Shown: positions 1,478 to 56,535 of the stretch, in pieces
Layout of the letters: every line of letters begins with the position of its first letter
Position numbering within the stretch: the stretch's first letter is position 1
Source: an uncultured Rickettsiales bacterium
Lineage (GTDB): Bacteria > Pseudomonadota > Alphaproteobacteria > Rickettsiales > UBA8987
Length of the DNA stretch: 64,000 bases
Assembly (NCBI GenBank): GCA_964588995.1
Contig: CAZPQM010000010.1
Location: 910-64,909 of the forward strand
Reading direction: 5' to 3'
Program-made: the position numbers and the translations under genes
Notes under the pieces: generated by a model
The model's database searches: none
Told to the model about the DNA's origin: nothing
Seen by the model: the letters and a program-made list of their open reading frames with translations, nothing else

Positions 1478-1578
1478 CTCTATAGCTCGTGGTGGTTAGT
1501 GCTAAAGAATTGTGTTGCACTATATACCGGGGTTGTTCTGTGGATTCAAGCTTAACTGTATAAAAGGAAGAGGAAGAG

Positions 1579-12321: not shown

Positions 12322-12441
12322 GCTTCGAGTTTAACCATGGTTGGGCTGTATTGGCAACGATTTGTGAATAAGCAGCGCATACGGCATAGAGTTCATTACC
12401 ATCTCATTGCCGGGTTACCAACTATTTGGCAGTATTATTTC

Positions 12442-36735: not shown

Positions 36736-36894
36736 TTAGACCAAACGCGTTACGTCCGGAATTGGCGTGATTGCGTGCCTGTTCGCATCAAATGATTGGC
36801 AATTCTGGTGCAAGAAGATAAACAGCCATGTTTTCCGTTGGATTTTCCAAAAGATATTGTATTACTTACGGTAAGATATCTTGTTAGGGGGCGT

Positions 36895-39800
36895 ATGCCG
36901 ATAGGAGCTTATTTCCGTCGCAGTACAGCTATTGCGTTCATCGCGGGCAGTTTAATCACTGTCACCGCCCCTTTCGTGATGGCGCAAGCGATTGATTTCG
37001 GTCGTCCACTTATCAATGCTGCCGATCAGGGCAATCTCGAACAGGTAGAGCAGATTCTGGGCAAGGGCGTTAACCCTAACCGCCGGGGTAAATTTGAAGC
37101 GACCGCGCTGATGCGAGCCGCCTATAACGGCCATACTGACGTAGCTAAAGCATTGCTGGGCGCCGGTGCCGACGTCAATGCCCCCGATGTCGGTGGTGCG
37201 ACCGCGTTGCATCTGGCTGCGCGGGAAGGTCATAGCGAGCTCGCGACACTGCTGATCCGAAGCGGCGCTGATGTTAATTTGCGCGACGGAGAAGGTTGGA
37301 CGCCGCTGATGCGCGCCGTAGCCTCGGAAGAACCGCTCATTGTACAGAAGCTACTGGATGAAGGCGCTACCACCGGCGCCCGCGCCTTTACCGGAGAAAC
37401 CGCGCTGATCCTCGCCGTACGCCGCCGCAATGCCGAACTCGTGAGTACGTTGCTGCAATATGGCGCCGATCCTTCGCTGACCGATAACGACGGCTACAGC
37501 CCGATTGATATCGCTACCCAGCAAAACAGCGATGCGATGCGCTCACAGTTGATTGCGGCGAAGAAAGCGCCGCGCCCTGCACCGCGTCAGGATCCGCTAC
37601 CGCCTGCGTCCCTGCCTCCGGGCCGCTCCCCGGCAGCCGCATCCGAGCCGGTGCCTCCCTCCGATACCGGGCCGATCAGCGAATATAGTGCAGGGGCTAC
37701 TTACCTGCCACCGTCGATTGAGACGCCACTCGGCGAGGCGTTTGACGCACGGCTTTCCCGCTTTCCCGAGGGTGATCCCTACCGCTCTAAAGCAGTTGAG
37801 GCGGCGCGCCGTGTCGAGCAGGCACAGGCAGCACAACTTGCCGCCGAACGGGCCGCACGCAATGCCGCCGCCGAGCTGGAAGCCTTGCGCGAAAAAGAAC
37901 GGGAAGTGCAGCGTGCCGCCGTTGATGAGGAAGCCGCTCGCACTGCTGCTGCTCAGGCCGAAATTGAACGCATCCGTGCCGAGCTGGTGCTTGCAGAACG
38001 GGCCGTAGGCGAAGCCGAGAAAGATCTAAACCGTGCAAATGCGGAGCTGGAAGCGGTCAAAACACAGGCGGTGGAAGCGCTTGCCTCCCTTAATAGCGAG
38101 GTGAGTAGCGAAACGGCCCGGCTCAATCAGGAACTGCAGCAGGCGCAAGCTGCTATCCAGCGGGCGAAGGTCAATCGTCAGTCCGCTCAGCAACGAAAAA
38201 CCGAAGCGCTAGACCGGCAGGAAAAAGAAAATGCGCGCATGATGGCCGCCCGTAAAGCGGCGGATGAAGCGCTCGTGATCGCGCAGCAACGCGCTGCCGT
38301 AGTCGATGAGGCGCGGTCGGAGCTTCGTGCGTTTCAGCGGCAGGCGCAGGATCTGATTATCCGCGAAAGCCGCGGCGAAACACCGAATGGCCGCCGCCGT
38401 CCGGCCGCCAATGCTGCCCGTACCGATGAAGAATGGTGGAAGGAGCGCGCCGGGATCGAAGATACACCCCCGGAATCCGCTGCTACCCGCTTAGCCGGCT
38501 CACAAAGCGCCATGCAGCAAAGCCTGCAGAAGGCCGAATCGCTGGAGGCCAAAGTACGTGAGGAAAATGAGGCGCGTCAGGCTGCGCAGCGTGCTGAGAC
38601 CGAGGCTATGCGGGTCGCGGTCGAAGTCTCGCAGGTCGCGGCGCAAACCGCGGCAACAGTGGAGAATGCCGAGCAGGATATGCGCAAGGCCGCTGCCGCT
38701 ATCACTGCCGGGGAAACGCGCATCGCGGAAATTCAGGCTGCACTCGAACGGCAGGATCGTAAAATTGCCGATACGCGCCGTAAGATCGAGCAGCAGAATG
38801 CACTTGCCCTTAAAAAAGCCGAAGCCAATCAGGACGCGGCAGAAGTACAACTTGCCGAGGCACAGCAAACGGTCGGACAGCTTCAGGAGCAACTGGAGGC
38901 AGCACGGTTGATCGCATCCGAACGCACGCAGAAATTCCGCCGGATGCAAGCTATTTCCGCGCAAGAGGCCGAGCAGCGCGCACTTGAAGCGCGGCAGCGT
39001 TTAGCCGCAGCAGAAAAAGCAGCACGGGAAGCGGATAAGCGTATTGAGGCCTCCGTTGCCGAGGCGCGCAGGGCGGAACGCCTCGCACAAGCTGCCGAGG
39101 CGAAACGTCTCGCTGCGATTGAGGCAGAGAAAAAACGCCGCGAAGTGGAACTGATTAAAAAAGCGGAAACCGAGCGTATCCGCCGTATGCAACTGGCAAA
39201 AGCGCAGGAGGAGGCGGATCAGATTCTGGGTGAAGCCCGGCGGATGGAAGAACAGGCGGCGAATATTGCCGGTGCGGCCTCCGAACGGATTGAGCAGGCG
39301 CAGGCGGAAGAGCGGCTGGCGCAGGAAGCGATTGAAGAGGCCGAGGCAAAAATCCGCGCAGCGCAAATGGCGGAGGATAGCGTGGTTATGGCCAAGCAGC
39401 GCGCCGCAGAAGCTACGGAGCGGGCGCGACTGGCAGCGGCTGAGATCAAAGCCGCGCGTGCAGCAGCGCAGGCGGAAGAGGCGCGGAAGCGTCGCGAACT
39501 AGCCGAAGAGCAGGCGCGTATCATCGAAGAAGCCCGCAAGCGCCGCCGCGAAATCGAGCAGGCGGAAATTGCCGCTGCGCGTGAACGTGCCGAGAAAGCA
39601 GCGCAGGCAGCGCAACTGCTTGCTCAGAAAATGCAGGAAGCGGAGCGTATGGCAGCCGATGCGGCGCGGCGTGACAAATTCCTTGCCGCGCAGGATGCCG
39701 CAGCCGAGCTCAAGGAAAACCAGATCAGGCAGGAAGAGGCAAGCGCAGCGGAACGGCTCGCAAGCGCGATGGTCCGTGCGGCTGAAACCGAGTCGGAAGC

Positions 39801-41811
39801 CACCCTCGCGCAGGCAAAGGTGCGCCGCGCCGAACTCGATGCACAGGCACGTGAAATGGAAGCCGAGCTGAAAGCGGCACGCGAAGAGGCGGAACGTATC
39901 GCGCAGGCCACCATCCTCGCCGCCGAGGAAGAAGCCGCAGCTCGGATAGCAGCGGCGCAGCGGCGCATTCAGGAAGAGGAAGCGCGCCTCGCCGCCGCGC
40001 AGGAACAGGCGGAGATTGCCCGTATCGCCAAGCTGGAAGCGGCTGAGAAAGTGAAGGAAGCAAAAGCACGCGAAGCCGAGCGCCTCAAGCGTATCAAACT
40101 GGCCGAAGCGCAGGCCGAAGCCGAACGCAAGCTGGAGGAAGCGCGCATTCAGGCGCTGGAAGAAAAAGCGCGTGAGCGTATTCAGGCAGCGCGTCTGAAG
40201 GCGGAAGAAATCGAGAAAGCACAGCTGCAGGCGGCGCGAATCAAGGCCGAGGCCGAAGAAGAGAAACAGCTTGCTGAAGCACGTATACAGGCGGCGGAGG
40301 ATGCAGCACGCATAGCCGCGATGCGTATCCGTGCCGAAGAGGAAGCCGCGAAACGCGTCGCCGAGATGCGTATCCGCGATGCAGCGGAAGAAGCGGCCTT
40401 ATTGCAGGCGGAAAAGATCCGTGCAGCAGAAGAAAAAGCGATCGAAATCGCGAACGAAGAGCTGCAGAAAGCCGAGCAGCAGGCGAGTGCAATCCTGGAA
40501 GAGGCCGAACAGCAGGAGCAGCAATCGGCTGAGCTTTCCGCCACGATGCTGCGTATGGCGGAAGAAGAAGCCGAGCAGAAACGTCGTACGGCGGTTGAAG
40601 CCCTTGCCCGCGCCGAACTGGAAGCAGAGCAAAAACTGACACTGGCCGAAATCGAAGCCGAGCGGGCGCGTGCACGGGAATTGGCGCAAGCCCGGCGCGA
40701 TGCAGCCTTAACGGCTGAACAAATCCGGGCCGAAGCACGCGAACTTGCCCGTCTGGCCCGTGAGCGCGCACGCTTGGAGGAAGAACAGTCCGCGGAGATA
40801 GTTGAACAGCGCCGCGCAGAAGCCCGCCGGATTGCCGAGCAGGCTGACCGCACGATTGAAGAAGCCGAGCGCGAGGCGGAGCGCATAAAAGAACTGAAAA
40901 TCAAGCAGGCTGAGATTGAAGCGCTGGAGCGTGCCGCCCGTACCGCGGCAGAAGAACGGCTGCGGGCAAAAGAGCGCGCGGCCGAAGCGGCAGCTGCAGC
41001 AGAAGCTGAGCGCATCCGGGCTGAGGCGGCCAACCGCCGGGCTCTTGAGCAGGAACGGCTGATCCGTGAGCAATATCAAGGCCTGCCGGACTTTGTCGAT
41101 GAAACGGTGATCCGTGAGGATTTACAACGCGCCCGCGAAGAGGCCGAGCGGCTACAACGTGAAGCGCTGCAGGCTACTCCCACGGTAAAACCGCGCTCAC
41201 CGCGCCCTGAACCCGCACCGCCTGCCCAGCCTGAACCGCCTCGTGAGCCTGCCCCTGCCCCGCAAACTCCACCACAACAGCCACAGCTGGATTTACCGGA
41301 AGTGCAGGAACTAAGCCTGCCGGAATTAGAGGCGTCCTCCGATAAACCGTTACCGCGTGCAGCCAATCAGGAACCTACCACGGCAACCCTGCCGGAAGCG
41401 CTGAACGAAGAGATCGAATCGATCATTGCCGAACTGCCGGCACGGGAGAACCTCCCCTCACGGGCGCGTGATTCGGCGCGGGTACAAATCGCCGAAGCGG
41501 TCCGTGTCCCGGCTGACCAGAACGGCAATGTCGAATATGAATGGTTTGACCCGTCCGCCTCACCGGATACGGCGGCGCCCCTCTTTATTCAGGTCGGCCC
41601 GTTTGATTCGGAGGATTCCGCCGCGACCTATTTCACGACTGTGGTGAGCCGCAACCGCCTGACCGAATATAGTCTGAATGTCATGCCGCCCGCGGAAAGC
41701 CGCCCGGGCTATCGCCTCAAGATAGGCCCGATCGCGCGGCAAGGGCAGATTGCTGAACTCTGCGTCCTCTTCGGCAGTGAGGGCCTTGTCTGCTCGCAGC
41801 ATACCGAGTAA
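36895..41811 (+). CDS. 1638-aa exported protein: ankyrin repeats, a ~1150-aa A/E/R/K/Q coiled-coil region and a C-terminal SPOR domain
   Basis: The preferred ATG at 36895 follows AGGGGG and gives a signal-like MPIGAYFRRSTAIAFIAGSLITVTAPFVMAQA. Five or six ANK repeats lie at ~37015-37546 (TALMRAAYNGHTDVAKALLGAGADVN, TALHLAAREGH.., TPLMRAV..). The C-terminus LFIQVGPFDSEDSAATYF...GYRLKIGPIARQGQIAELC fits SPOR. Confidence 0.8.
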   Translation: MPIGAYFRRSTAIAFIAGSLITVTAPFVMAQAIDFGRPLINAADQGNLEQVEQILGKGVNPNRRGKFEATALMRAAYNGHTDVAKALLGAGADVNAPDVGGATALHLAAREGHSELATLLIRSGADVNLRDGEGWTPLMRAVASEEPLIVQKLLDEGATTGARAFTGETALILAVRRRNAELVSTLLQYGADPSLTDNDGYSPIDIATQQNSDAMRSQLIAAKKAPRPAPRQDPLPPASLPPGRSPAAASEPVPPSDTGPISEYSAGATYLPPSIETPLGEAFDARLSRFPEGDPYRSKAVEAARRVEQAQAAQLAAERAARNAAAELEALREKEREVQRAAVDEEAARTAAAQAEIERIRAELVLAERAVGEAEKDLNRANAELEAVKTQAVEALASLNSEVSSETARLNQELQQAQAAIQRAKVNRQSAQQRKTEALDRQEKENARMMAARKAADEALVIAQQRAAVVDEARSELRAFQRQAQDLIIRESRGETPNGRRRPAANAARTDEEWWKERAGIEDTPPESAATRLAGSQSAMQQSLQKAESLEAKVREENEARQAAQRAETEAMRVAVEVSQVAAQTAATVENAEQDMRKAAAAITAGETRIAEIQAALERQDRKIADTRRKIEQQNALALKKAEANQDAAEVQLAEAQQTVGQLQEQLEAARLIASERTQKFRRMQAISAQEAEQRALEARQRLAAAEKAAREADKRIEASVAEARRAERLAQAAEAKRLAAIEAEKKRREVELIKKAETERIRRMQLAKAQEEADQILGEARRMEEQAANIAGAASERIEQAQAEERLAQEAIEEAEAKIRAAQMAEDSVVMAKQRAAEATERARLAAAEIKAARAAAQAEEARKRRELAEEQARIIEEARKRRREIEQAEIAAARERAEKAAQAAQLLAQKMQEAERMAADAARRDKFLAAQDAAAELKENQIRQEEASAAERLASAMVRAAETESEATLAQAKVRRAELDAQAREMEAELKAAREEAERIAQATILAAEEEAAARIAAAQRRIQEEEARLAAAQEQAEIARIAKLEAAEKVKEAKAREAERLKRIKLAEAQAEAERKLEEARIQALEEKARERIQAARLKAEEIEKAQLQAARIKAEAEEEKQLAEARIQAAEDAARIAAMRIRAEEEAAKRVAEMRIRDAAEEAALLQAEKIRAAEEKAIEIANEELQKAEQQASAILEEAEQQEQQSAELSATMLRMAEEEAEQKRRTAVEALARAELEAEQKLTLAEIEAERARARELAQARRDAALTAEQIRAEARELARLARERARLEEEQSAEIVEQRRAEARRIAEQADRTIEEAEREAERIKELKIKQAEIEALERAARTAAEERLRAKERAAEAAAAAEAERIRAEAANRRALEQERLIREQYQGLPDFVDETVIREDLQRAREEAERLQREALQATPTVKPRSPRPEPAPPAQPEPPREPAPAPQTPPQQPQLDLPEVQELSLPELEASSDKPLPRAANQEPTTATLPEALNEEIESIIAELPARENLPSRARDSARVQIAEAVRVPADQNGNVEYEWFDPSASPDTAAPLFIQVGPFDSEDSAATYFTTVVSRNRLTEYSLNVMPPAESRPGYRLKIGPIARQGQIAELCVLFGSEGLVCSQHTE

Positions 41812-45091: not shown

Positions 45092-45943
45092 ATGAGTCAC
45101 CTTGCACTGATTATCCTCGGTATGCATCGCAGCGGAACGTCCTGCATTACGCGCCTCGCCAACCTGCTCGGCGCGGAATTGACCGAACATCTCGTGCCCG
45201 CCGGGCCGGATAACGCACAAGGCTTTTTCGAAGATGCGCGCATGGTCGCCATGAACGAAGAAGCGCTGGAGGGCTTCCGCACCTCGCATCTGGGTAGGCG
45301 CCTGCTTCCTCCCCAATGGCAGGAGAAAAAGCCTGCGGTCGCGCTGCGCTCACAAGCGGCGGAACTTATCAGCACGGACTACGCGCAGAAGCCTTTTTTC
45401 GCGCTGAAAGACCCGCGCCTTTGTCGCTTGCTGCCTATTTGGCAGGAGGTACTGAATTACCATCAGATTACCCACCGCTATATTTTCGCTTTCCGCAATC
45501 CGCTCGAAGTGGCGCATTCGCTCAAACGCCGCAACAAGCTGAAAGTGAAGGACGGTTTGCTGCTCTGGCTGCTCTATACGGTCGAGGCGGAGCGCTACAC
45601 GCGGGATCAACACCGCGCGTTTCTCTATTATCCGGATGTGATTAAAGACTGGCGGGTGAGTATGGTATCGACCGCCCGTCACCTTAATGTGCACTGGCCG
45701 CGCACGCCGGAAAGTATCGCAGCCGATGCGGCGACGTTTATTCAGCACGATATGCGCCATAACCATGCGGAAGAGCTGCATTATTCGCGCGAAATCCCGA
45801 CGGATTACCTGCCGTTTCTGCACGGTGTCTATTCCTCGCTGATGTCGGCTTCGGAATCGAATAAGCTCGACCCGAAATCGTTTGATCTGGCCGAGGAATT
45901 TCTGGAGGCGAAGTTGGGCAGTCGTTTTCGGCTATTCGCCTGA
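45092..45943 (+). CDS. sulfotransferase family protein
   Basis: From the ATG at 45092: MSHLALIILGMHRSGTSCITRLANLLG, a 5'-PSB-type P-loop. The track ORF start at 44870 overlaps the upstream gene and a hairpin. Confidence 0.7.
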   Translation: MSHLALIILGMHRSGTSCITRLANLLGAELTEHLVPAGPDNAQGFFEDARMVAMNEEALEGFRTSHLGRRLLPPQWQEKKPAVALRSQAAELISTDYAQKPFFALKDPRLCRLLPIWQEVLNYHQITHRYIFAFRNPLEVAHSLKRRNKLKVKDGLLLWLLYTVEAERYTRDQHRAFLYYPDVIKDWRVSMVSTARHLNVHWPRTPESIAADAATFIQHDMRHNHAEELHYSREIPTDYLPFLHGVYSSLMSASESNKLDPKSFDLAEEFLEAKLGSRFRLFA

Positions 45944-46915
45944 GGGCGCTTCCCGGTTGGCAAAAAGCCATGCGTGCTGAATTATAGTTTCCAGATCGGA
46001 AAGCATCGGCTTCCAGCCAAGTTGTTCGCGAAGCTTTTGGCCTTCTGCAACCAGTACCGCCGGATCGCCCTCGCGCCTCGCGCCGATAATATGCGGAACG
46101 GGCTTTCCCGTGACGATTTCAGCCGTTTGCACCACCTCGCGTACCGAATAGCCCTGCCCGGTGCCAACATTGAAAACCGCGCGCTTCTCGCCTTCGCGTA
46201 ACGCATGTAGTAGCTTGAGATGCGCATCGCACAAATCCCACACATGGATATAATCGCGGATACAAGTGCCGTCTTCCGTGTCATAATCTTCGCCGAAGAT
46301 CGTCATTTGCTCGCGCTTGCCCTGAATGGCTTCTAAAATAATCGGAATAAGGTGTGTCTCCGGCTCATGGCGCTCGCCGAGTTCACCTTCCGGATCAGCC
46401 CCGGCGGCATTGAAATAGCGCAATATGCCATAGGGCAGCCCGCGCTCCTGCCCGGCCTGCTCCAGCAAGGCTTCACAAGCGCGCTTGCTTTCGCCGTAGG
46501 GATTAATCGGCTGCAACGGGTGTGCTTCATCGATCGGCGCATATTCCGGATTACCATAGACCGCCGCCGTCGAAGAAAAAATAAACGGAATCTGATGCTT
46601 TGCCGCCTCCGCTATCAGCACCTTCGTACGCTCAACATTATTGGTGAAATATTTTTCAGGATACTGAACAGACTCCCCTACCTGAATGTAGGAGGCAAAA
46701 TGCATGACGGCATCAAATGCGACATTCTGAAACAGGGTCTCTAATAGCGCCGCATCACCGATATTACCCACAACCAGCTTACCGCCGGTCACCGCATCAC
46801 GGTAGCCGTTCTCCAAGCTGTCGAGCGTTACGGTTTGGCAACCGCTCGCCTGCAGCATTTTGACCATGTGCGAGCCGATATAGCCCGCCCCACCGGTTAC
46901 CAGAATCGTTGGCAT
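45932..46915 (-). CDS. galE: UDP-glucose 4-epimerase
   Basis: ILVTGGAGYIGSH, a YGESK catalytic motif (PYGESKRACE), DYIHVWDL. Confidence 0.9.
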   Translation of the reverse strand: MPTILVTGGAGYIGSHMVKMLQASGCQTVTLDSLENGYRDAVTGGKLVVGNIGDAALLETLFQNVAFDAVMHFASYIQVGESVQYPEKYFTNNVERTKVLIAEAAKHQIPFIFSSTAAVYGNPEYAPIDEAHPLQPINPYGESKRACEALLEQAGQERGLPYGILRYFNAAGADPEGELGERHEPETHLIPIILEAIQGKREQMTIFGEDYDTEDGTCIRDYIHVWDLCDAHLKLLHALREGEKRAVFNVGTGQGYSVREVVQTAEIVTGKPVPHIIGARREGDPAVLVAEGQKLREQLGWKPMLSDLETIIQHAWLFANREAPSGE

Positions 46916-47619
46916 CCTGCCTGCTCCAGTTCATTTAGATAGTGTTCCAACGACTCCATGCTACCATGATAGAGCTCCTCGAGTACAGGCCGCAGGCTGG
47001 GGCGCAAGCTATCAGAGGCACCGGCGAACACTTTCTGTTGCAATTCCGCCTTCATTTCGGTTGTGAAATAATGTGCGTCTGCCCCTAAAAAACCCGCTGT
47101 TCGGTTCAAAAGCTCAAGCGGCTGGTCCTTTATGCGGTCAAAATGAATCACTAGTAACTGCGATGGGTCAAAATAGTCCATCCAGTTACGCAAACAGGCT
47201 TCATACGCACCGCGCATACGCGAGCCTTTGGAATGAAAATGGTCGATAAACCACTGATCGCTTGCTTCTTCCAGCTCCATATGGCAATACCACAGGGCCA
47301 TTTTAGCCGATGACAACGCACGATCTATCGGATTACGCACCATATAAATAATTCTAATATCTGGATAATGCTTTTTAATCTGCTTTATGATGTTTCCTTG
47401 TAGTGTTGCATAGGCCGGAGTGATTTCACCTTGCTTCACATCCTGCATATCCTGCGCAAAGATACGGTCATACCAGTCAAAACCACGATCAAAATGACGG
47501 TCGAAAAAGTGAATTTCCTTCTCACGCGCCGGAAAATTAATCTGCGGGTGCTTCGATAAGTGTTTATACAGCCAGGTGGTACCCGCTTTTTGCGCTCCGA
47601 TGCCTAAGAAATCAAGCAT
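46897..47619 (-). CDS. sulfotransferase domain protein
   Basis: FLGIGAQKAGTTWLYKHL (5'-PSB), RNPIDRALS (3'-PB-like). Its ends overlap both neighbours. Confidence 0.8.
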   Translation of the reverse strand: MLDFLGIGAQKAGTTWLYKHLSKHPQINFPAREKEIHFFDRHFDRGFDWYDRIFAQDMQDVKQGEITPAYATLQGNIIKQIKKHYPDIRIIYMVRNPIDRALSSAKMALWYCHMELEEASDQWFIDHFHSKGSRMRGAYEACLRNWMDYFDPSQLLVIHFDRIKDQPLELLNRTAGFLGADAHYFTTEMKAELQQKVFAGASDSLRPSLRPVLEELYHGSMESLEHYLNELEQAGCQRFW

Positions 47620-48919
47620 GGTCCGCTATATCCACATGGTAGCTTGGAGAGAAATCAATCGTTCCGGTGGCGTTATGGTCACTATCAGATATGACTTTGA
47701 ACATCAACGCATCGTGAATTCGATGCAAAAAAGTCCGCTCTTCACCGCGTTTGGCCGAACAGCCGCAATTTATAAAATACGTGCCTTCTAACAGCCGGTT
47801 GACAAATTTAATCCTCACTTCCACCCGCTGACCGGCTTCCACCTTCGCAAGCGTATCACTCATCATACTGGCACCGCCAATTTCCATACCGCTGATGCCC
47901 TTTATTAACATACCGAAACGAACATCTTTCGCTGCCTCATCAAAGGTCACATCATAACATAGCCGATAAGTCTTTCCCGTCTCAAGGACGTTGACAATCG
48001 CATCCTCCTCATCCTGCAAGCGCACATGCTGTATTTCCGCACCGTTCGGCGCATAAACCACCGTCGTCTCCACTTTCAGCGACGGTAAAAAGCCCGGCGC
48101 AGTCGGCTCTTCGGCAATGCGCTCCTCGCGATGTTCACGATCATGCCGCAACGCATGCAGGTAGCTCGCCTGCTCTTCCTCCGGCGCGTAAAGAAACCGC
48201 TGGTAGCGGCTAAGCACATACTTGGGTGTGTCATCAAGGATAAGGTGCCCGCCATCCAGCCAGATGGCTCGGTCGCACAGCTCCAGAATCGCACGCGGCG
48301 AATGGCTGACAAACAACACCGTCGTACCCCGGCTTTGCAACTCGCGGATGCGCGCATAGCATTTACGCTGAAACGCCTCATCCCCCACCGCGAGCGCCTC
48401 ATCGACAATAAAAATATCCGGCTCCACACTTGCCGCGACCGCAAAGGCAAGCCGCACATACATACCGCTGGAATAGGTGCGTACCGGCTGCGCAATATCC
48501 TCAGCGCTCAATCCGGAAAACGCGATAATATCGTCATATTTTTGAGCAATTTCCGGCTCGGACAGCCCAAGAATCGCCGCATTTAACTTCACATTCTCTT
48601 TACCGGTAAATTCGGGATTAAACCCTGCGCCCAGTTCCAGCAGTGCCGAAATACGCCCATTTACCTCCAGCTCACCACCGCTTGGCGTCAGCGTTCCACA
48701 TAATAGTTGCAGCAACGTCGATTTACCGGAACCATTCCGCCCGATAATCCCGACCATTTCGCCCGGCCCGATCGTCAGATCCAGCGGATGAAGCGCGTGC
48801 TTTTCGCGATAATAGGCGCCGCTTCGGATGAGCGCCTGCTTAAGCCGGTCCGCGGGGCGGCGATAGACCTGATAACGCTTATAAAGGCCATGCGTCTTGA
48901 CGGCAACTTCGCCAGCCAT
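47612..48919 (-). CDS. polysaccharide/O-antigen ABC exporter ATP-binding protein (Wzt/TagH type) with a C-terminal beta-sandwich (Wzt_C-like) domain
   Basis: GRNGSGKST, YSSGMYVRLAF, IFIVDEALAVGD, plus a ~180-aa C-terminal extension. The ATG at 48919 overlaps the TGA of the upstream DUF2155 gene (TGATG). No wzm permease is in the window. Confidence 0.8.
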   Translation of the reverse strand: MAGEVAVKTHGLYKRYQVYRRPADRLKQALIRSGAYYREKHALHPLDLTIGPGEMVGIIGRNGSGKSTLLQLLCGTLTPSGGELEVNGRISALLELGAGFNPEFTGKENVKLNAAILGLSEPEIAQKYDDIIAFSGLSAEDIAQPVRTYSSGMYVRLAFAVAASVEPDIFIVDEALAVGDEAFQRKCYARIRELQSRGTTVLFVSHSPRAILELCDRAIWLDGGHLILDDTPKYVLSRYQRFLYAPEEEQASYLHALRHDREHREERIAEEPTAPGFLPSLKVETTVVYAPNGAEIQHVRLQDEEDAIVNVLETGKTYRLCYDVTFDEAAKDVRFGMLIKGISGMEIGGASMMSDTLAKVEAGQRVEVRIKFVNRLLEGTYFINCGCSAKRGEERTFLHRIHDALMFKVISDSDHNATGTIDFSPSYHVDIADHA

Positions 48920-49722
48920 CAACTACAGCCTTTCAGCGTCACATCGTACACCGCATGGCTAGGCCCTGAGACATAGGGCACATCCGAAATCAACCAGCCG
49001 GCATAGATCGTTTCGACCCGCTCACTTTTTTGCGTCTGCCCATCCGGAGTAAAGCGCAGGTTCGGTACGCGCTCGCGGATATTCACCAGCGCCATTGCCC
49101 GGTCAATGCCGCTACGAGGTTCGATTACGCAGCCCAGCACCTCCAACTCCAGCATATCAAATTCCCCAACTTCCTGCCCTTTGGTTCGTAAGGTCATCTG
49201 CTCGTTGTTAAGTGATATACGGTTGAGCAACTGCACCGTCGCATGATCGATTCCCTTGGAAATCGTTACTACGGGCAGGGGTTTTACAGCGCGTGCATTT
49301 TCGGGCAAAGGTTGTTGTGGTAGAGTCGGGCGTTCCCGTTCTGTGATAATATCCTGACGGTCCACCGGCATCAGAATTTCGCCCTCTTCGTTAATAATGG
49401 GAATTTTCCGGGGCGATGTTTCAACGGCTGCATCAAAAGAAGGGGACACATCGCCGAATGGGTTTTCATATCCCTGTTGCGGCGGTTGCTGTGTTTCTTC
49501 AAAATTTAGCTGCCAGTTGCGCTCCCGCGGCGGTTCCGCTTCTCGGAGTGGCTTCCTTTCATCGGTGCCAGGTTCGTAATTCCGCGGCGTGGTAAACTCA
49601 TATTCCTCAAGGAGCCGCTCTAGCCGCGTCGTTGCGTCTTCAGCCTCAGGCGATTGCGCTGTTACCAAATCCGCCGTAAAGAGACAGGCGATACCGATTA
49701 CAAACGATCCGGTACGGCTCAT
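48919..49722 (-). CDS. DUF2155 domain protein
   Basis: The preferred start is MSRTGSFVIG (49722). The C-terminal block VQLLNRISLN...LEVLGC...AGWLISDVPYVSGPSHAVYDVTLKGC matches the DUF2155 pattern (GW..S....HxVYDVxLxxC). Confidence 0.7.
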   Translation of the reverse strand: MSRTGSFVIGIACLFTADLVTAQSPEAEDATTRLERLLEEYEFTTPRNYEPGTDERKPLREAEPPRERNWQLNFEETQQPPQQGYENPFGDVSPSFDAAVETSPRKIPIINEEGEILMPVDRQDIITERERPTLPQQPLPENARAVKPLPVVTISKGIDHATVQLLNRISLNNEQMTLRTKGQEVGEFDMLELEVLGCVIEPRSGIDRAMALVNIRERVPNLRFTPDGQTQKSERVETIYAGWLISDVPYVSGPSHAVYDVTLKGCS

Positions 49723-49735
49723 CCTGACGAGCCTC

Positions 49736-50224
49736 TTAGAAAACATCATCTTCCGGTGGCAGGTGGTTCTCATCTCCGTCCGAGCTGTCTCCACTGAAGA
49801 CAAAACGCGCGATCAAAGACTCAATCGAGATGGCGGGTTGCGTCATGGTAATCTGCCCGCCATCCTGCAGAAACTCCTCTGAACCGCCCGGTACAATGGC
49901 AAGATACTTCGCACCCAGCAAGCCGTCGCCGATAATTTCCGCCCGGCTGTCTTGCGGTAGCTTGATTTCCTCATCCACGGTGAAGAACACCTCTGCAAGA
50001 TAGGATTTTGGCAGAATTTCCTGTCGCACCACCTGTCCGACTACAAGCCCGCTTACCCGCACATCGCTACCCACCTTCAGTCCGTCAATACGGTCAAACT
50101 TTGCCGAAAGCTTATAATGTGCATCATCCTGTTTGCCGGCACTACTGTAAACGGTTAGCAGAAACCAACCCGCAATCAGCAGAACAACGGCACCGATCAA
50201 TGTTTCGAACAGACTTTTTCCCAT
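49736..50224 (-). CDS. mlaD: MCE-domain protein MlaD (outer-membrane lipid asymmetry)
   Basis: An N-terminal TM helix, then the MCE fold pattern Y.L.A.F....GL..GS.VR.SG..VG.V. Confidence 0.8.
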   Translation of the reverse strand: MGKSLFETLIGAVVLLIAGWFLLTVYSSAGKQDDAHYKLSAKFDRIDGLKVGSDVRVSGLVVGQVVRQEILPKSYLAEVFFTVDEEIKLPQDSRAEIIGDGLLGAKYLAIVPGGSEEFLQDGGQITMTQPAISIESLIARFVFSGDSSDGDENHLPPEDDVF

Positions 50225-50295: not shown

Positions 50296-50640
50296 TCAGG
50301 CCGCCTTGGCGTAGTAATCCCGGCTACTGGCAAAATAAGCCGCCTCTGCTTTGAGGGAAGGCACATGGTTTTTATCGAAATTTGGCGCTTCTTCCAGCGT
50401 TCTTTTATCCAGTGGCAGCTTCAGGCAATCTTCCTGTTCATCCCAGCCGAACTGATTATACGGCACCGCAACCAGCTTATCGTTTAGCTCGGTACCGAAG
50501 ATGCCGCCGTAAGAAATGATAATATATTCAGCCTGACCTTCCGGCGTCAGCACCATATCTTCTACGTGACCTAAATTGTCACCTTCATGATTCTTGATAT
50601 CTCGATTCATACTATCTTTTACATAATAATTTGTTGCCAT
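50296..50640 (-). CDS. PRC-barrel domain protein
   Basis: G.NLGHVEDMVLTPEGQAEYIIISYGG.....KLVAVPY fits a PRC barrel. The start is at 50640 or 50661. Confidence 0.6.
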   Translation of the reverse strand: MATNYYVKDSMNRDIKNHEGDNLGHVEDMVLTPEGQAEYIIISYGGIFGTELNDKLVAVPYNQFGWDEQEDCLKLPLDKRTLEEAPNFDKNHVPSLKAEAAYFASSRDYYAKAA

Positions 50641-50712
50641 ACTATCCTCACTTGTTTCCAAGCATGGTCAGGCATGTGGCATGAAGGTTCGATAAGAAAA
50701 TATAATAGCTGG

Positions 50713-52020
50713 CTAAAAATCCGATAAAGATTGTTTCTTGCTTAGAAATGCTATCATTCCATCCAGCGGTACATTCTCTTTCGCCCCCGATGCGCGGAAT
50801 TTTACCTCCACTTCACCAGCTTCAACGCCGCGCGGGCCAACGACCAGCTGTATCGGCGTGCCGATCAAATCCTGCGTAGCAAATTTCTGCCCGGCTGATA
50901 CATCTTTCCGGTCATCCATCAGCACCTCATAGCCTGCTCGTTGAATGTCCTGATACAATGTAGTAGCAACGGGGTCACAGGCATCATGGCCCGGCTTCAT
51001 ATGAATCAGCCCGAGATCGAACGGCGCAACCGCACGTGGCCAGCGAATGCCGTCCACATCATGATTCGCTTCAATGATCGCACCCACAAGCCGCGAAATG
51101 CCAATGCCATGCGCACCCATTTTAACTGGCTTACTCATGCCGCCCGGATCGGTCACGCTCGCTTTCATCGGCGCGGAATATTTATCTCCGAAATAAAAAA
51201 TATGCCCGACTTCAATACCGCGCCGGGTTTTGAGTTTACCTTCTGGAACGTCACACTGTGCAGGATCGTGCAGCTCATCCGCCGCGGCATATAGCTCCTG
51301 CATAGCTTCCACGTCCCAATCTTCCTGTGCAAGCAATTCTTCAAACCGCTCATCATAGAAAATTTCGCTTTCACCCGTATCCGCAAGCACCTGAAACTCA
51401 TGGCTCAGCTTACCGCCGATCATACCGGTTTCCGCACGCACCGGAATCACTTTTAAGCCCAGCCGGTTAAAGATGCGCAGATAGGTGTGGTACATCTGGT
51501 TATACATCTCTACATGGCTATCCTCATCCAGAGAGAAGGTGTAGGCATCTTTCATCAGAAATTCACGCCCGCGCATCACACCAAAGCGGGGTCGGATTTC
51601 ATCACGGAATTTCCATTGAATCTGATAGAGATTAAGCGGCAATTGCTTATAGCTTTTGACCGTGCGCCGAAACAGGTCGGTGATAACCTCCTCGTTCGTT
51701 GGCCCGTAGATCATATCAATATCGTGACGGTCACGCACTTTCAGCGTTTCCTTGCCATAGCTGCCTCGGCCTGATTCTTCCCATAGGGAGGCAGGTTGCA
51801 TGGTGGGCATCAATACTTCCAAGGCTCCGGACTTATCCATCTCGTCGCGCACGACTTTTTCTATTTTGCGCAACACTTTGAGGCCAAGCGGCAACCAGTC
51901 ATAAATCCCACTGGAGAGTTGGCGGATCATACCGGCACGCAGCATCAGCCTGTGGGAAGCAATGCTGGCTTCAGCCGGGTCTTCTTTCAGAAGCGGCAGC
52001 AGGTACTGAGATAATTTCAT
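50713..52020 (-). CDS. proS: prolyl-tRNA synthetase (short type lacking the editing insertion)
   Basis: 435 aa with class II motifs: FRDEIRPRFGVMRGREF, KDAYTF, GHIFYFGDKYS, MGAHGIGISR. Confidence 0.95.
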   Translation of the reverse strand: MKLSQYLLPLLKEDPAEASIASHRLMLRAGMIRQLSSGIYDWLPLGLKVLRKIEKVVRDEMDKSGALEVLMPTMQPASLWEESGRGSYGKETLKVRDRHDIDMIYGPTNEEVITDLFRRTVKSYKQLPLNLYQIQWKFRDEIRPRFGVMRGREFLMKDAYTFSLDEDSHVEMYNQMYHTYLRIFNRLGLKVIPVRAETGMIGGKLSHEFQVLADTGESEIFYDERFEELLAQEDWDVEAMQELYAAADELHDPAQCDVPEGKLKTRRGIEVGHIFYFGDKYSAPMKASVTDPGGMSKPVKMGAHGIGISRLVGAIIEANHDVDGIRWPRAVAPFDLGLIHMKPGHDACDPVATTLYQDIQRAGYEVLMDDRKDVSAGQKFATQDLIGTPIQLVVGPRGVEAGEVEVKFRASGAKENVPLDGMIAFLSKKQSLSDF

Positions 52021-52079
52021 AGAGGTCGTATTTGCTTCATTTTCAGGAAAAAGGCAAGGGCTGTTTTGCCCGTAACCTG

Positions 52080-54650
52080 TTATTTATCCCGGCTTTCCAT
52101 GATATCTTTTACCTTGGAAGCGAGCTGATTAAGCGTGAAGGGTTTCGGCAGAAATTCAAAATCACGCGTATCGCCGAAGGTTTTGATAAATTCATCCTCG
52201 CCATAACCGGAAATAAAAATCACCGAGATATCCGGATTTTTTGCGAGCAACTGTTGTACCATTTCCGGCCCGCTGATACCCGGCATCATCACATCGGAAA
52301 TGATCATATCGATTGAATTCGCATGCTCGGCAAACTGCCGCAGCGCATCTTCTGCATGTTCGGCGACCAGCACATCGTAGCCCTTGTTTTTCAGTGCGCG
52401 GCTGGCAAACAACCGCACCGGCGCTTCATCTTCCACCAACAGAATTTTACCCGAGCCGGTGAGGTCCTGTACTTTCTTGGTCTCCACCTTTTCGACCTGT
52501 GCATCTGCGGAAACTTCGTAGCGCTTCAGCAGAATCATAAACGTCGTGCCCTGATTCACCTTACTCGAAACCAGCACGAAACCCCCGGTCTGCTCAATAA
52601 TGCCGAGCACGGTAGAAAGTCCGAGTCCCGTACCCTTACCCAGCTCCTTCGTGGTAAAAAACGGCTCAAAGATCTGTTCCTGCACTTTTTTCGGCATCCC
52701 ACATCCCGTATCCTGCACTTCGATCGCAACGTAATCACCGTTCGGAATGTCGTCGATACTTTCCGCTGACACAAAATGAGCAGGAATCGGGTTGAGCTTC
52801 TTATCGATCGTGCGGTTGGAGGTACGGATGGTCAAAACGCCTTTACCCTCCATTGCATCACGCGCATTGACAGCAAGGTTGATAATCACCTGCTCCAGCT
52901 GCCCGGTATCGGCTTTGACTTTCCACAAATCGCGTCCATGCCGGATTTTAAGCTCGATATTCTCCCCGATAAGTCGCCGCAGCAGGTTGGACAGATCGGC
53001 AATCGTATCGGTGATGTCGACCACTTCCGGCTGTAAGGTCTGCTTACGGGAAAAGGCGAGTAACTGTCGCACTAGCCCGGCAGCCCGGTTTGCATTCTGC
53101 TTGATTTGCATGATATCGGCAAAGGATTGTTCGCCCGGCGGGTGACGCATCAGTAATAGATCACAAAAGCCGATCATTGCCGTAAGGAGATTGTTAAAGT
53201 CATGCGCTATACCGCCCGCCAGTTGCCCAACTGCCTGCATCTTCTGCGAATGAATCATCTTATTTTCGAGCTGTTTCTGCTCCGAGGTGTCAATCAGGTA
53301 GCCGATAAAGCCCGGATTCTCCTCATCCTGCTGTGCAGGTTCAATGGGATTTACATACAAATCACCCGTGCCGTTCTTCCGATGCGGCAAGGGGATGGTC
53401 AACGGCTTATGATCGGCGCGGCCACTTAAGCGCTCCTGCTCCAGCAGCTGGGAAAGGTCGTTGCGGTGGCTGGTCTCTACGATATCGAAAATGGAAAGAT
53501 GCTGCTGATCGGTCAGTTTTTTCCCAGCCAGCTTGCGAAAAGCTGCATTGGTTTCCGTTACATTTCCCTGCGTGTCCATCAGCACGATACCAATTGGCGA
53601 GGTCTCTAAAAAGCGGCTCCATAACTCGGTAATGGATTGCGCCAGCGTTTCCGGCAGGTTCGATTGTTTACGAACACTTGCCATCGGTGCATCTTTTTTT
53701 GACACCACGAAGCCGCAGCGTAGCAGGCCCTGATCCAGATCATGATCCTTACTCAGCATAAGCTGCTTCAGGTTCGCCGCAACCGGGTGCCCATCTTTAT
53801 GTTTGAAAGTAACTTTAGCTTCCCATTGCTCGTTGAAGCTTTCTTCATCCAGCACGTGATTAGCAAAGACCAGATCCCGGAACCTGATATTTTCTTTCAT
53901 CAGCTCCAGTTGTTCATAACCCAGCATGTCAGCAAAGGCCGGGTTCACGTAATACAGCACACCTTCTTCGGATGCTTTATAAATTCCGGTGTTCATCTCA
54001 TCAAATACGCGTGTCAGCGCATGCGGCTGATAGCCACCTTCATCCGTTGCCGATATTCTGAAGACTTTAATAACACAAAACCCCCGTGGGCGTCGGATAG
54101 GCTCCAATACAAAATCCACCATGACACTCTTGGTTTCATTACGCATGAGCTCGACATCGAAGTTTCGCGCTTCACGGCTCATCACAGCATGTATAATCTT
54201 ACGCGCGGTCATGTGCTCGATGCCGAGATTTTCCAGAAAGCTATCAAGCCGCTTAAATTGTTTTTTGGGCGTTTTAAGATAATTACGGCTGTTGGGGCTA
54301 TAATAGACCACTTGCTGATCCTGCTTTATAATCAGCATGAATTCCATTCCCGTATTGGCCGCCCCCGCGAAGAGGGCATTCTCAAACTCATTCGAAAACA
54401 AATAACTCGCAAGCTGATGCGTATAGAGCATGAGCAGTATCACCAGGCAGACGAAACCGAGCGTAAAGGCAGCAAGTATTTTGATCGGCACCAGTTCGGT
54501 CACGGCCAGGAAGCTCACGAAGCTTATACCCATTGCGATAAAAGCGGATAGGATAATCTGCAGCATCAGGCTGCGGCTGCTGCGACGGCGGATAAAGAGC
54601 TTATCGCGTTCGGTCAGTTTGCTGATATCGTGAAAGCGGGATTGCGTCAT
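52080..54650 (-). CDS. hybrid sensor histidine kinase/response regulator with PAS domains (CckA-like)
   Basis: N-terminal TM helices and two PAS-like regions, then DHp (AGGIAHDFNNLLTAMIG), HATPase (NLAVNARDAM, DTGCGM, GTGLGLS) and a C-terminal REC (ILLVEDE...DMIISDVMMPG...KPF). Confidence 0.8.
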   Translation of the reverse strand: MTQSRFHDISKLTERDKLFIRRRSSRSLMLQIILSAFIAMGISFVSFLAVTELVPIKILAAFTLGFVCLVILLMLYTHQLASYLFSNEFENALFAGAANTGMEFMLIIKQDQQVVYYSPNSRNYLKTPKKQFKRLDSFLENLGIEHMTARKIIHAVMSREARNFDVELMRNETKSVMVDFVLEPIRRPRGFCVIKVFRISATDEGGYQPHALTRVFDEMNTGIYKASEEGVLYYVNPAFADMLGYEQLELMKENIRFRDLVFANHVLDEESFNEQWEAKVTFKHKDGHPVAANLKQLMLSKDHDLDQGLLRCGFVVSKKDAPMASVRKQSNLPETLAQSITELWSRFLETSPIGIVLMDTQGNVTETNAAFRKLAGKKLTDQQHLSIFDIVETSHRNDLSQLLEQERLSGRADHKPLTIPLPHRKNGTGDLYVNPIEPAQQDEENPGFIGYLIDTSEQKQLENKMIHSQKMQAVGQLAGGIAHDFNNLLTAMIGFCDLLLMRHPPGEQSFADIMQIKQNANRAAGLVRQLLAFSRKQTLQPEVVDITDTIADLSNLLRRLIGENIELKIRHGRDLWKVKADTGQLEQVIINLAVNARDAMEGKGVLTIRTSNRTIDKKLNPIPAHFVSAESIDDIPNGDYVAIEVQDTGCGMPKKVQEQIFEPFFTTKELGKGTGLGLSTVLGIIEQTGGFVLVSSKVNQGTTFMILLKRYEVSADAQVEKVETKKVQDLTGSGKILLVEDEAPVRLFASRALKNKGYDVLVAEHAEDALRQFAEHANSIDMIISDVMMPGISGPEMVQQLLAKNPDISVIFISGYGEDEFIKTFGDTRDFEFLPKPFTLNQLASKVKDIMESRDK

Positions 54651-54692
54651 GGGCGCATTATGACCCGCTTATGCTAACGAGGCAATGGAGGA

Positions 54693-55418
54693 TTAGCCAT
54701 TCTGATTCGTATCGAATGGATTCGGAGTAGAAGAGGCCGGTTGGGCAGGATCGCCCTGCCCCTGCTGAATCGCCTGTACTTGGTTAGCGCTTAGTTCAGG
54801 GTAATTCTGCGGGTTTTTGATCATATCGATGGCTTTATAGGTTTCCTGCCGGAACTGATTCGGATCTTTAATCCGCTTGATTTCCATATGCTCCATGCCG
54901 ATACCGGTAATCAGGATATTACCGCGATGAATAATCCGGTCGAGCGCACTTTGCTTGACTTTCACGCCCTCTACGTGATCCAGCGGTATTTCGACTTCAT
55001 TCACCTCGACCAATCCGCGCTTGTAAATCACCTTGCGGGTGGTGATCGCCTGTTCGACACTGATCTTACGGATCATAGACATGGTGAAGGTAAAAAAGCC
55101 CATAGCGAGCAACGCCGTTCCAATCAGTCTCTGGCGCGCTTCATTCGCCGTAATCAAGAGATTATATAACTCTTCCGGCAGGCTGGCTAAAAAGTTATGC
55201 ACATAACCCCACACCAGATCGACATAATACCAGAAGCGATCAAGATAGGGGTGTTCGACCCGGGCTCCTGAAATGTCTGGTGGAAATAGAAATAATAGCC
55301 CGATACCCATCAGCAGAATTCCCATATAGCGGGAGAAGGGATGTAATTTCCCGGCATATAAAATCCGCTCGTTATTCAGGAGGGTATGCCGCGTATATTT
55401 GGTGAGTGGTTTTCCCAT
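54693..55418 (-). CDS. membrane protein with a bacterial PH domain (bPH_2/YdbS-YdbT-like)
   Basis: TM helices, then ITTRKVIYKRGLVEVNEVEIPLDHVEGVKVKQSALDRIIHRGNILI, the bPH_2 pattern. Confidence 0.7.
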   Translation of the reverse strand: MGKPLTKYTRHTLLNNERILYAGKLHPFSRYMGILLMGIGLLFLFPPDISGARVEHPYLDRFWYYVDLVWGYVHNFLASLPEELYNLLITANEARQRLIGTALLAMGFFTFTMSMIRKISVEQAITTRKVIYKRGLVEVNEVEIPLDHVEGVKVKQSALDRIIHRGNILITGIGMEHMEIKRIKDPNQFRQETYKAIDMIKNPQNYPELSANQVQAIQQGQGDPAQPASSTPNPFDTNQNG

Positions 55419-55427
55419 GACGGCGCG

Positions 55428-56057
55428 TTAATCGACCTTGACGGCGACACCCATGCGCCGTGTCGTATGTTCTTCTTCTGCCTCAGCCGCACGGAATCCA
55501 TACATTTCTATTGCATTCAATACGGCTTTTTTCATCTGCCCGGGATGCGCCACACTATCAATCACGATCTGATGCTTTTCTTTTTGCTTTTCATTACCGT
55601 GAATTGCCACCTTGTCCTTTACCGTTACCTTGCCTTTGGCAATCAGCCGGTCGAACATCGATTGTTTAGCTTTGACGTCACCGATCCGATGCAGATACAT
55701 TTGTTGCCGCTTGGAAAACAACATCCCGGTAAGCGCAATAACGCGCTGCGTTGTCACCAGAATCAAATTATGCTTACGTGCAGAATGAATCTGCGTCGCA
55801 ATAACTACGCCGAATCCGGCAATCAAATAGCCGAAATACGTTTCGCGTGCACCGCGCAGCATCTCTTCCACCGGGCTGTGATAGCGCACTGGCGTGTATT
55901 GCAACACAACGTCGGGGTAATGCATCAGCACGATACCAAGCAACATAAGGCAGACGGGAAATACATAGGCGGTAGCACCCACTTTGGCTTCGAATACAAC
56001 ACGCTCTTTGTGATGTAAGACCTCGCGAATGCGCTCATCTCTAGATTTTTTTGCCAT
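55428..56057 (-). CDS. membrane protein with a bacterial PH domain (bPH_2), paralogue of the downstream gene
   Basis: The preferred start is MAKKSRDERI (56057). VTTQRVIALTGMLFSKRQQMYLHRIGDVKAKQSMFDRLIAKGKVTV. Confidence 0.7.
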   Translation of the reverse strand: MAKKSRDERIREVLHHKERVVFEAKVGATAYVFPVCLMLLGIVLMHYPDVVLQYTPVRYHSPVEEMLRGARETYFGYLIAGFGVVIATQIHSARKHNLILVTTQRVIALTGMLFSKRQQMYLHRIGDVKAKQSMFDRLIAKGKVTVKDKVAIHGNEKQKEKHQIVIDSVAHPGQMKKAVLNAIEMYGFRAAEAEEEHTTRRMGVAVKVD

Positions 56058-56133
56058 ATAAACCAGCTCCCTCTTCCTTCTCCAGTATAACCTGATTGCA
56101 AGTATACCTATAGGAAAAAATGGGGAAATCCGG

Positions 56134-56535
56134 TTAGGAGGATTGGTTCTGTTCGAGTTGTTGCCGGGCGCTGCGAATAACTTGGTACAACTCATCGCGG
56201 TCGAATGGTTTTTTTACCGTCGCGAACACACTGTCCAGCACCTCAGCATTTTCGGCCATCTGATGAAGGTGGGCACTGACAAAGATAATGGGGATATGCT
56301 TGCATCCAGGGTGATTCTGCATGCGTCGCGCCAACTCTAATCCATCCATGACGGGTAATTTACAGTCCAGCAGCGCAATGTCGATCTGATCGCCATGCTC
56401 TTTCAGATAACTCCAAGCCGTGACAGCTTCCGTAAAAGTCACCGGATCATAGGTTTCATCCAATAAAAGCTTTTCGATAATCTCCAGATTGAAGGGGTCA
56501 TCTTCAACACAGAGCAAACGTAACGGATCTCTCAT
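56134..56535 (-). CDS. single-domain response regulator (REC only)
   Basis: LLCVEDDPFN, IALLDCKLPVMDG (phospho-acceptor Asp), VKKPF. The start is MRDPLR at 56535. Confidence 0.85.
   Translation of the reverse strand: MRDPLRLLCVEDDPFNLEIIEKLLLDETYDPVTFTEAVTAWSYLKEHGDQIDIALLDCKLPVMDGLELARRMQNHPGCKHIPIIFVSAHLHQMAENAEVLDSVFATVKKPFDRDELYQVIRSARQQLEQNQSS

Follow-up and report, generated by a model that had tools for sequence, protein, structure and literature searches.

In a 64,000-nucleotide stretch of DNA from an uncultured Rickettsiales bacterium (positions 910 to 64,909 of contig CAZPQM010000010.1, assembly GCA_964588995.1; hereafter called the window, with positions counted from its first letter), five genes follow one another on the minus strand and encode, in reading order, a MlaD-type MCE-domain protein, a DUF2155 protein, a Wzt-like ATP-binding cassette (ABC) ATPase, a sulfotransferase and the epimerase GalE. 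A preliminary description of this string had suggested that the MCE protein could work with the Wzt-like ATPase and that a sulfate-capped glycan could be the substrate. The comparisons reported here argue for two separate envelope modules, mlaD-DUF2155 and wzt-sulfotransferase-galE. The features concerned are as follows.

49736-50224, minus strand: mlaD, encoding one MCE domain and an N-terminal transmembrane anchor (Pfam MlaD and NCBIfam).
48919-49722, minus strand: the DUF2155 gene, a conserved mlaD partner; signal peptide, Pro/Glu-rich linker of ~150 residues and C-terminal DUF2155.
47612-48919, minus strand: wzt; ATPase at residues 1-250, carbohydrate-binding domain at about 290-425.
46897-47619, minus strand: sulfotransferase of the carbohydrate type, dependent on 3'-phosphoadenosine 5'-phosphosulfate (PAPS); candidate glycan-modifying or capping enzyme.
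45932-46915, minus strand: galE, UDP-glucose/UDP-galactose 4-epimerase (TIGR01179).
45092-45943, plus strand: putative second sulfotransferase (weak match), convergent, sharing 12 nucleotides with the 3' end of galE.
50296-50661, minus strand: PRC-barrel gene directly upstream of mlaD (Pfam PRC, 1.3e-7).
50713-52020, minus strand: proS (Pfam tRNA-synt_2b and HGTP_anticodon), with which the same transcription unit may begin.
52052-52071, upstream of proS: terminator-like hairpin found by a terminator scan.

Open reading frame (ORF) calls, Pfam and NCBIfam all agreed with the preliminary description on the five minus-strand genes, their order and their domains. Pfam E-values were 4.5e-18 for MlaD, 1.2e-9 for DUF2155 (PF09923), 2e-20 for ABC_tran, 1.1e-31 for Wzt_C and 3e-53 for Epimerase, and the sulfotransferase at 46897-47619 matched Sulfotransfer_1 and Sulfotransfer_3 at ~1e-17 each. 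MlaD, whose translated N-terminus is hydrophobic and which matches PF02470, passed the NCBIfam MlaD equivalog TIGR04430 (137.4 bits versus a cutoff of 135), and GalE passed the equivalog TIGR01179 with 404.8 bits versus a cutoff of 262.3. The start of the DUF2155 gene was placed at Met28 of the longest ORF. The four tight junctions were likewise reproduced from the sequence: the TAA of mlaD is followed by 13 nucleotides, gaggctcgtcagg, containing GAGG, and then by the ATG of the DUF2155 gene; the DUF2155 gene and wzt share one nucleotide in agtTGATGgct; wzt overlaps the sulfotransferase gene by 8 nucleotides and the latter overlaps galE by 19. Inside the five-gene string, the promoter and terminator scan gave nothing above chance. 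A transcription unit running from proS through PRC, mlaD, DUF2155, wzt and the sulfotransferase gene to galE is plausible, and the genes may be co-transcribed.

The mlaD-DUF2155 pair was compared with 80 alphaproteobacterial mlaD loci obtained by an alignment-based scan (loci are designated below by L and a number). DUF2155 neighbours were scored with a locally built iterative hidden Markov model (HMM), a word-index search having returned the query only. In 78 of these loci mlaD is immediately followed by a DUF2155 ORF, and one of the two misses, L011, gave a weak Pfam match to DUF2155; NDUFA12, scored with its own HMM, lies directly upstream of mlaD in 79/80. An ABC-ATPase HMM, which passed its positive control and detects an unrelated Opp-type ATPase of the window, found any ABC ATPase within 10 kb of mlaD in only five loci and adjacent to it in none. 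Wzt_C, sulfotransferase and Wzm were each found in 0/80 mlaD loci, and neither MlaE nor MlaF was found in the Pfam-annotated contexts of the close MlaD relatives L008-L010. The premise that mlaD belongs beside mlaE and mlaF finds no support in this group, where an ABC ATPase is missing within that distance from 75 of 80 loci and where the NDUFA12-mlaD-DUF2155 operon had already been reported (PMC9226611). As judged from these neighbourhoods, mlaD-DUF2155 is a stand-alone alphaproteobacterial module, usually preceded by NDUFA12. Since an mlaD without adjacent mlaE and mlaF is the rule in the group, no new ATPase partner is needed to account for the one in the window.

Compared with the described operon (e.g. 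Thioclava AKL02_06520-06530; PMC9226611), the window has the same succession of mlaD and DUF2155 and likewise no adjacent mlaE or mlaF. It differs in three respects: the PRC-barrel gene and proS hold the upstream position of NDUFA12, which the HMM did not find anywhere in the window; a long linker rich in Pro and Glu is present in the DUF2155 protein; and glycan genes continue downstream in the same orientation. With the MlaFEDCB system of E. coli the window shares an MCE-domain MlaD that has an N-terminal anchor and passes the MlaD equivalog, whereas MlaF, MlaE, MlaC and MlaB are all missing from the 64 kb and the neighbouring ATPase is of the Wzt type, not of the MlaF type. The idea of a specialised MlaD paralogue was dropped, because the neighbour-joining tree places both the window MlaD and that of L173, a locus described below, among ordinary NDUFA12-linked orthologues, in a nine-member clade with L010, L011 and L013. 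As a separate observation, the DUF2155 protein (48919-49722, minus strand) has 267 residues, of which ~150, rich in Pro, Glu and Gln, link the signal peptide to the domain; its relatives are mostly about 120-260 residues long, and it scores 4e-22 on the family HMM versus ~1e-40 for most of them.

For the Wzt-like protein's nucleotide-binding domain, the best solved match was Wzt of Aquifex aeolicus (E 9e-67). Residues Y16, Y19 and R25 align to Tyr11, Tyr14 and Arg20 of the A. aeolicus gate helix (chain numbered +1); the equivalent of the gate-helix Lys12 is a Gln, with Arg20/Arg21 close by. In the A. aeolicus crystal structure the gate-helix residues form an electropositive pocket at the interface with Wzm that is thought to bind undecaprenyl diphosphate (UndPP; PMC6379404). 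The translation contains GRNGSGKST, YSSGMYVRLAF, IVDEAL and SH, corresponding to the Walker A motif, the signature, the Walker B Asp-Glu and the H-loop, and these catalytic motifs are invariant across 35 members of the clade; the signature follows the Wzt pattern Y-S-S/T-G-M-x-x-R/K-L-A/G-F defined in PMC6379404. Identity over the nucleotide-binding domain is about 59-64%, to Wzm-adjacent and to wzm-less orthologues alike.

The C-terminal domain was modelled with a predicted local distance difference test score (pLDDT) of 90.4. In Foldseek, ranks 1-17 were all occupied by Wzt carbohydrate-binding structures (5HNO/5HNP, 2R5O, 8DKY, 6O14 and full-length A. aeolicus Wzt), with template-modelling scores of 0.54-0.68 when normalised to the query and of 0.66-0.75 when normalised to the target for the stand-alone domains. 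The best PDB matches were the three solved Wzt carbohydrate-binding domains, headed by 5HNO, which binds a Kdo (3-deoxy-D-manno-octulosonic acid) cap. The sequence alignment to these solved domains (E about 0.3) is too weak for ligand-contact residues to be transferred; within the clade, K340, H399 and R400 are basic positions of the binding domain conserved throughout. By its sequence features, the ATPase is an orthodox Wzt that keeps the features facing Wzm and UndPP.

The resemblance extends to the Wzm-Wzt O-antigen transporters of E. coli O9a/O8, Klebsiella O12 and A. aeolicus, in which the same gate helix and YSSGMxxRLAF signature are found together with a cap-reading C-terminal beta-sandwich; there too a small modifying enzyme is encoded beside the transporter, and orthologues of the window protein have wzm directly upstream. 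The differences are that the candidate capping enzyme is here a PAPS sulfotransferase, the terminators named in PMC11231755 being a methyltransferase, a kinase-methyltransferase and a Kdo transferase; that the sulfotransferase lacks the coiled-coil ruler of the characterised terminators; and that the window has neither wzm nor an adjacent glycosyltransferase gene, wzm being absent from five of the eight clade loci.

These eight distinct loci, the window included (with L002, L004, L006, L171, L172, L173 and L174), make up our sample of the Wzt clade, which belongs to uncultured Alphaproteobacteria, Rickettsiales/Holosporales-like ones among them, and whose closest members are only 52-55% identical to the window protein. 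As a control we used 80 generic Wzt/TagH loci among the metagenome matches listed, all at <=41% identity and outside the clade. A sulfotransferase orthologue lies directly after wzt in 8/8 clade loci and in 0/80 of the unrelated wzt loci listed, and once, in P0006 (692 residues), it is fused to Wzt. An epimerase follows the sulfotransferase gene or genes in four loci (window, L002, L171 and L173). Near the clade, 50%-identity representatives include Wzts with a methyltransferase attached, C-terminally in two cases and N-terminally in one; P0264, P0265 and P0270 have these domains (C-terminal FkbM-type or Methyltransf_12, N-terminal Methyltransf_25) and parallel P0006. Methyl is an established cap read by Wzt binding domains (8DKY; PMC11231755). 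Because the methyltransferase fusions parallel the Wzt::sulfotransferase fusion, the sulfotransferase sits where an established capping enzyme is otherwise found.

The sulfotransferase itself carries GAQKAGTTW and VRNPIDRALSS in its translation, matching the 5'-phosphosulfate loop and the 3'-phosphate motif of PAPS-dependent sulfotransferases, and its nearest solved structures, at E 4e-14, are 3-O- and N-sulfotransferases of heparan sulfate, enzymes that act on glycans. According to the preliminary description two sulfotransferases flank galE. The one at 46897-47619 is firm, whereas the convergent gene at 45092-45943 falls below the Pfam threshold (Sulfotransfer_1, E 0.003; 17.3 bits versus a cutoff of 22), so that it was only weakly confirmed; it has the PAPS-binding-like motifs GMHRSGTS and FRNPLEVAHS and a 38%-identical homologue inside the wzt-sulfotransferase cluster of L174. 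In L002, which belongs to GCA_030429725.1, a SulP/STAS sulfate transporter gene (11858-13399) directly follows wzt-sulfotransferase-epimerase, a placement that fits a sulfate demand of the cluster.

A sulfated glycan as the Wzt substrate is supported by the strict adjacency, the fusion, the methyltransferase parallels, the glycan-type sulfotransferase and the conserved basic residues; the comparative data thus strengthen the sulfated or sulfate-capped glycan of the preliminary description. That sulfate could be the very cap recognised by the binding domain is plausible on the same comparisons. A literature search, in which one key 2019 survey of the field was not covered, brought up no publication that treats sulfate as a terminator recognised by Wzt. 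The closest described case is the wb(salmo) cluster of Aeromonas salmonicida (Wzt, ORF19, WbbB; PMC4483657), where wzt is likewise followed by a small sulfotransferase-domain gene, of undefined role there, and no sulfate is known in the O-antigen; unlike the window, this gammaproteobacterial cluster keeps wzm and glycosyltransferase genes together.

The A. salmonicida case also feeds a different view of the sulfate, namely that Wzt and the sulfotransferase do work together but the sulfate is an internal decoration and not a cap, or that a wzm-less Wzt either is mainly a glycan-binding scaffold for the sulfotransferase or uses another permease. The lack of a coiled-coil ruler of the kind found in characterised terminators (PMC11231755), the second and even third sulfotransferase-like genes of several clusters, and the absence of wzm near the P0006 fusion point the same way. 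Against it, both the 8/8 adjacency and the fusion have their counterpart in the Wzt::methyltransferase proteins, in which the added group, methyl, is a proven cap; K340, H399 and R400 fit an anionic ligand; and the invariant catalytic residues of the ATPase imply real transport. We consider this view unlikely.

Two further observations were made on Wzt relatives and their surroundings. A set made of DnaA_N/Phage_rep_org_N, DUF6362 and a serine recombinase is common to L002 (311-3963) and L006 (4140-7602), 2-6 kb upstream of the wzt-sulfotransferase genes, and may be a mobile element. Three Wzt-like proteins of 790-820 residues (P0304, P0341 and P0345) have two tandem ABC_tran domains and no Wzt_C, an architecture of which we know of no description.

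The missing permease of the preliminary description proved to extend to the whole window. In Pfam scans of the ~50 ORFs across the 64 kb, Wzm (ABC2_membrane), MlaE and Mla-type ATPases all went undetected; apart from Wzt, the one ABC ATPase was the double-domain Opp-type protein at 30729-32363, and tblastn with Wzm queries from three orthologous loci gave no match. This negative result is meaningful because one of the Wzm queries detects wzm beside most of the 80 listed unrelated wzt genes, down to 24% identity. Within the clade, wzm lies directly upstream of wzt and overlaps it in L004, L171 and L172, and it was not found in the sequence obtained for the other five loci (window, L002, L006, L173 and L174); the lineages counted as wzm-less are the window genome, GCA_030429725.1 and GCA_002423155.1.

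The linkage of the two gene groups was seen a second time. L173, a contig of 6.7 kb that holds the closest Wzt homologue, reads mlaD-DUF2155-GT2x3-wzt-sulfotransferase-sulfotransferase-galE on one strand and tightly packed; its mlaD is partial and 54% identical to that of the window, and its triple-GT2 gene encodes 987 residues. The arrangement is, in other words, not confined to one strain. Conversely, mlaD is absent from six of the eight wzt-clade loci. In GCA_030429725.1 the two modules stand on different contigs: L002 has a 49%-identical triple-GT2 gene directly before wzt-sulfotransferase-epimerase-SulP, and L011 reads ankyrin-NDUFA12-mlaD-DUF2155-ybgC. The triple-GT2 gene directly before wzt in L173 and L002 encodes 987-991 residues, and the window has no such gene there. 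The Wzts of the window, L173 and L002 tend to group, weakly: the exact trio appeared in 27% of neighbour-joining bootstraps, and two of the three were sisters in about 70%.

Other relatives show related neighbourhoods. In L010 a 56%-identical, convergent galE comes right after DUF2155, and in L008 an rml/glycosyltransferase cluster lies 3 kb downstream of mlaD-DUF2155; no glycan genes were found beside the pair in L009, L011 and L013. In all, sugar-nucleotide or glycan genes are flanked by mlaD-DUF2155 in only four of seven close relatives, and no locus of the broader set of 80 shows this, so that a general tendency of the pair to flank glycan loci is at most weakly indicated. A recent horizontal acquisition of wzt-sulfotransferase-galE was rejected on account of the native base composition, the GC content at third codon positions of the three genes being inside the spread of the window. 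On the simplest reading, a variable glycan locus has long neighboured mlaD-DUF2155 and has repeatedly been reshuffled in the group, and in the window lineage the polymerase gene no longer stands between DUF2155 and wzt. Most likely, we infer, the adjacency reflects inherited locus architecture and not function.

Two neighbouring elements also differ in their placement. The divergent cytochrome c/kdsB pair of the window (527-2421) is 52% identical to the pair that flanks GT2-wzt-sulfotransferase-epimerase in L002 (4285-5678); since the kdsB-cytC pair flanks the glycan cluster only in GCA_030429725.1, the cluster is differently placed in the two genomes. The ankyrin protein at 36796-41811 (plus strand; 1671 residues, N-terminal ankyrin repeats), encoded in a stretch of high GC (0.61-0.62) and strong AT skew (0.28-0.38), is 51% identical at its N-terminus to the ankyrin protein found just upstream of NDUFA12-mlaD in L011. 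Its presence hints at a host-associated lifestyle.

Such rearrangements among relatives, with kdsB-cytC and the ankyrin protein differently placed, would also be expected if wzt-sulfotransferase-galE were a decaying remnant, from which a rearrangement had removed wzm and the polymerising glycosyltransferase gene and which would now be non-functional and expressed by read-through. The absence of wzm from the window and the loss of the 987-991-residue triple-GT2 gene that precedes wzt in L173 and L002 would suit this scenario. It is nevertheless decidedly unlikely: the ORFs are all intact with precise overlapping junctions, all catalytic motifs and clade-invariant residues of Wzt are kept, the other wzm-less loci (L002, L006, L173 and L174) are likewise intact, and the composition is native.

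The most far-reaching proposal is that MlaD, the DUF2155 protein and the Wzt-like ATPase together form a new transporter for a sulfated glycolipid or glycan that does without Wzm, MlaE and MlaF. It draws on the translational coupling at TGATG, the absence of a permease in the 64 kb, the recurrence of the linkage in L173, the lack of wzm beside wzt in five of the eight clade loci and the absence of NDUFA12 upstream of the window mlaD. An ABC ATPase depends on a membrane-spanning partner that contributes a coupling helix. With one transmembrane helix in MlaD and a secreted DUF2155 protein, neither of the two offers such a helix, and they cannot serve as the membrane partner of Wzt. Moreover, Wzt retains the gate helix and the signature and is no more distant from Wzm-adjacent than from wzm-less orthologues; wzt occurs in none of the 80 mlaD loci and six of the eight wzt-clade loci are without mlaD; and the MlaDs of the window and L173 are ordinary orthologues, with no specialised paralogue. 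The suggestion that MlaD works with Wzt also sits badly with orthologues that pair with Wzm (L004, L171 and L172) and with the Wzm- and UndPP-facing features kept in the window protein. We regard a joint machine of this kind as very improbable. Only marginally less so is a compromise in which, in a small alphaproteobacterial lineage made up of the window and L173 organisms, the sulfotransferase-coupled Wzt has lost Wzm, is co-expressed with MlaD-DUF2155 because they cooperate, and flips a sulfated glycolipid with another membrane partner, the MCE protein then carrying it across the periplasm.

Taken together, these results favour two independently conserved envelope modules lying side by side, probably co-transcribed and not forming a joint machine, a reading to which we give a rough probability of 0.68. 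It rests directly on how the genes are ordered, which domains they encode, how well each module is conserved, how strictly wzt is linked to the sulfotransferase gene and how orthodox Wzt is in its features, together with the separability of the modules, mlaD (L011) and wzt-sulfotransferase-epimerase (L002) being on different contigs of GCA_030429725.1. Both modules are of already known kinds; the second belongs to a sulfotransferase-coupled Wzt clade that is often unlinked from wzm.

Several points weigh against this reading of two modules. The mlaD-DUF2155/wzt linkage recurs, equally tight, in the deeply diverged L173, which goes beyond an isolated accident and might be a result of selection. 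Five of the eight clade loci have no adjacent wzm, unlike the generic wzt loci, in which wzm is mostly adjacent among the 80 listed. Wzm was not found in the 64 kb, so that a Wzm acting in trans is something we infer, as the most likely arrangement, and the wzt of the window has no accompanying glycosyltransferase gene there. The window mlaD lacks its otherwise near-universal NDUFA12 neighbour. Finally, A. salmonicida has the wzt-sulfotransferase adjacency and no known O-antigen sulfate (PMC4483657).

If the two modules are indeed separate, mlaD-DUF2155 would keep its usual lipid-related job, with any MlaE and MlaF partners encoded elsewhere, as is normal for the group, and Wzt would probably export a sulfated UndPP-linked glycan together with a Wzm encoded elsewhere. 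In this scheme wzt, the sulfotransferase gene and galE, with the putative second sulfotransferase gene, would form part of an ABC-transporter-dependent glycan pathway. GalE would supply UDP-hexose, and glycosyltransferases encoded elsewhere would assemble the UndPP-linked chain in the cytoplasm. The PAPS-dependent sulfotransferase or sulfotransferases would then sulfate the chain, most likely at its non-reducing end, as a finishing mark; the carbohydrate-binding domain of Wzt would recognise the finished end, and the Wzt ATPase would drive export through the Wzm channel encoded elsewhere in the genome.

Apart from these genes, the window contains at 52080-56195 (minus strand) a hybrid PAS histidine kinase/response regulator of 856 residues that adjoins two tandem membrane proteins with the bacterial PH domain bPH_2; a bPH_2 gene also lies about 4 kb downstream of the wzt cluster in L171. 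The ORF at 27057-30635 (minus strand) encodes 1192 residues, with a central RDD as the only recognisable domain, and is unusually long for the RDD family.

An MCE-Wzt hybrid, if true, would be a new transporter class, and cooperation of Wzt with MlaD would for the first time connect an MCE system with a Wzt-type exporter and would bring the first sulfate-capped substrate for a Wzt binding domain; the evidence argues against such a hybrid. This leaves a Wzt exporter clade that is coherent and uncharacterised, strictly tied to carbohydrate-type sulfotransferases and in one case fused to one. The frequent separation of wzt and wzm in this clade raises a small question about transporter assembly. 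Sulfate as a cap, if true, would extend the terminator-checkpoint model of ABC-dependent glycan export by a new chemistry and would point to sulfated surface glycans, similar to host glycosaminoglycans, in ankyrin-rich and probably host-associated bacteria.

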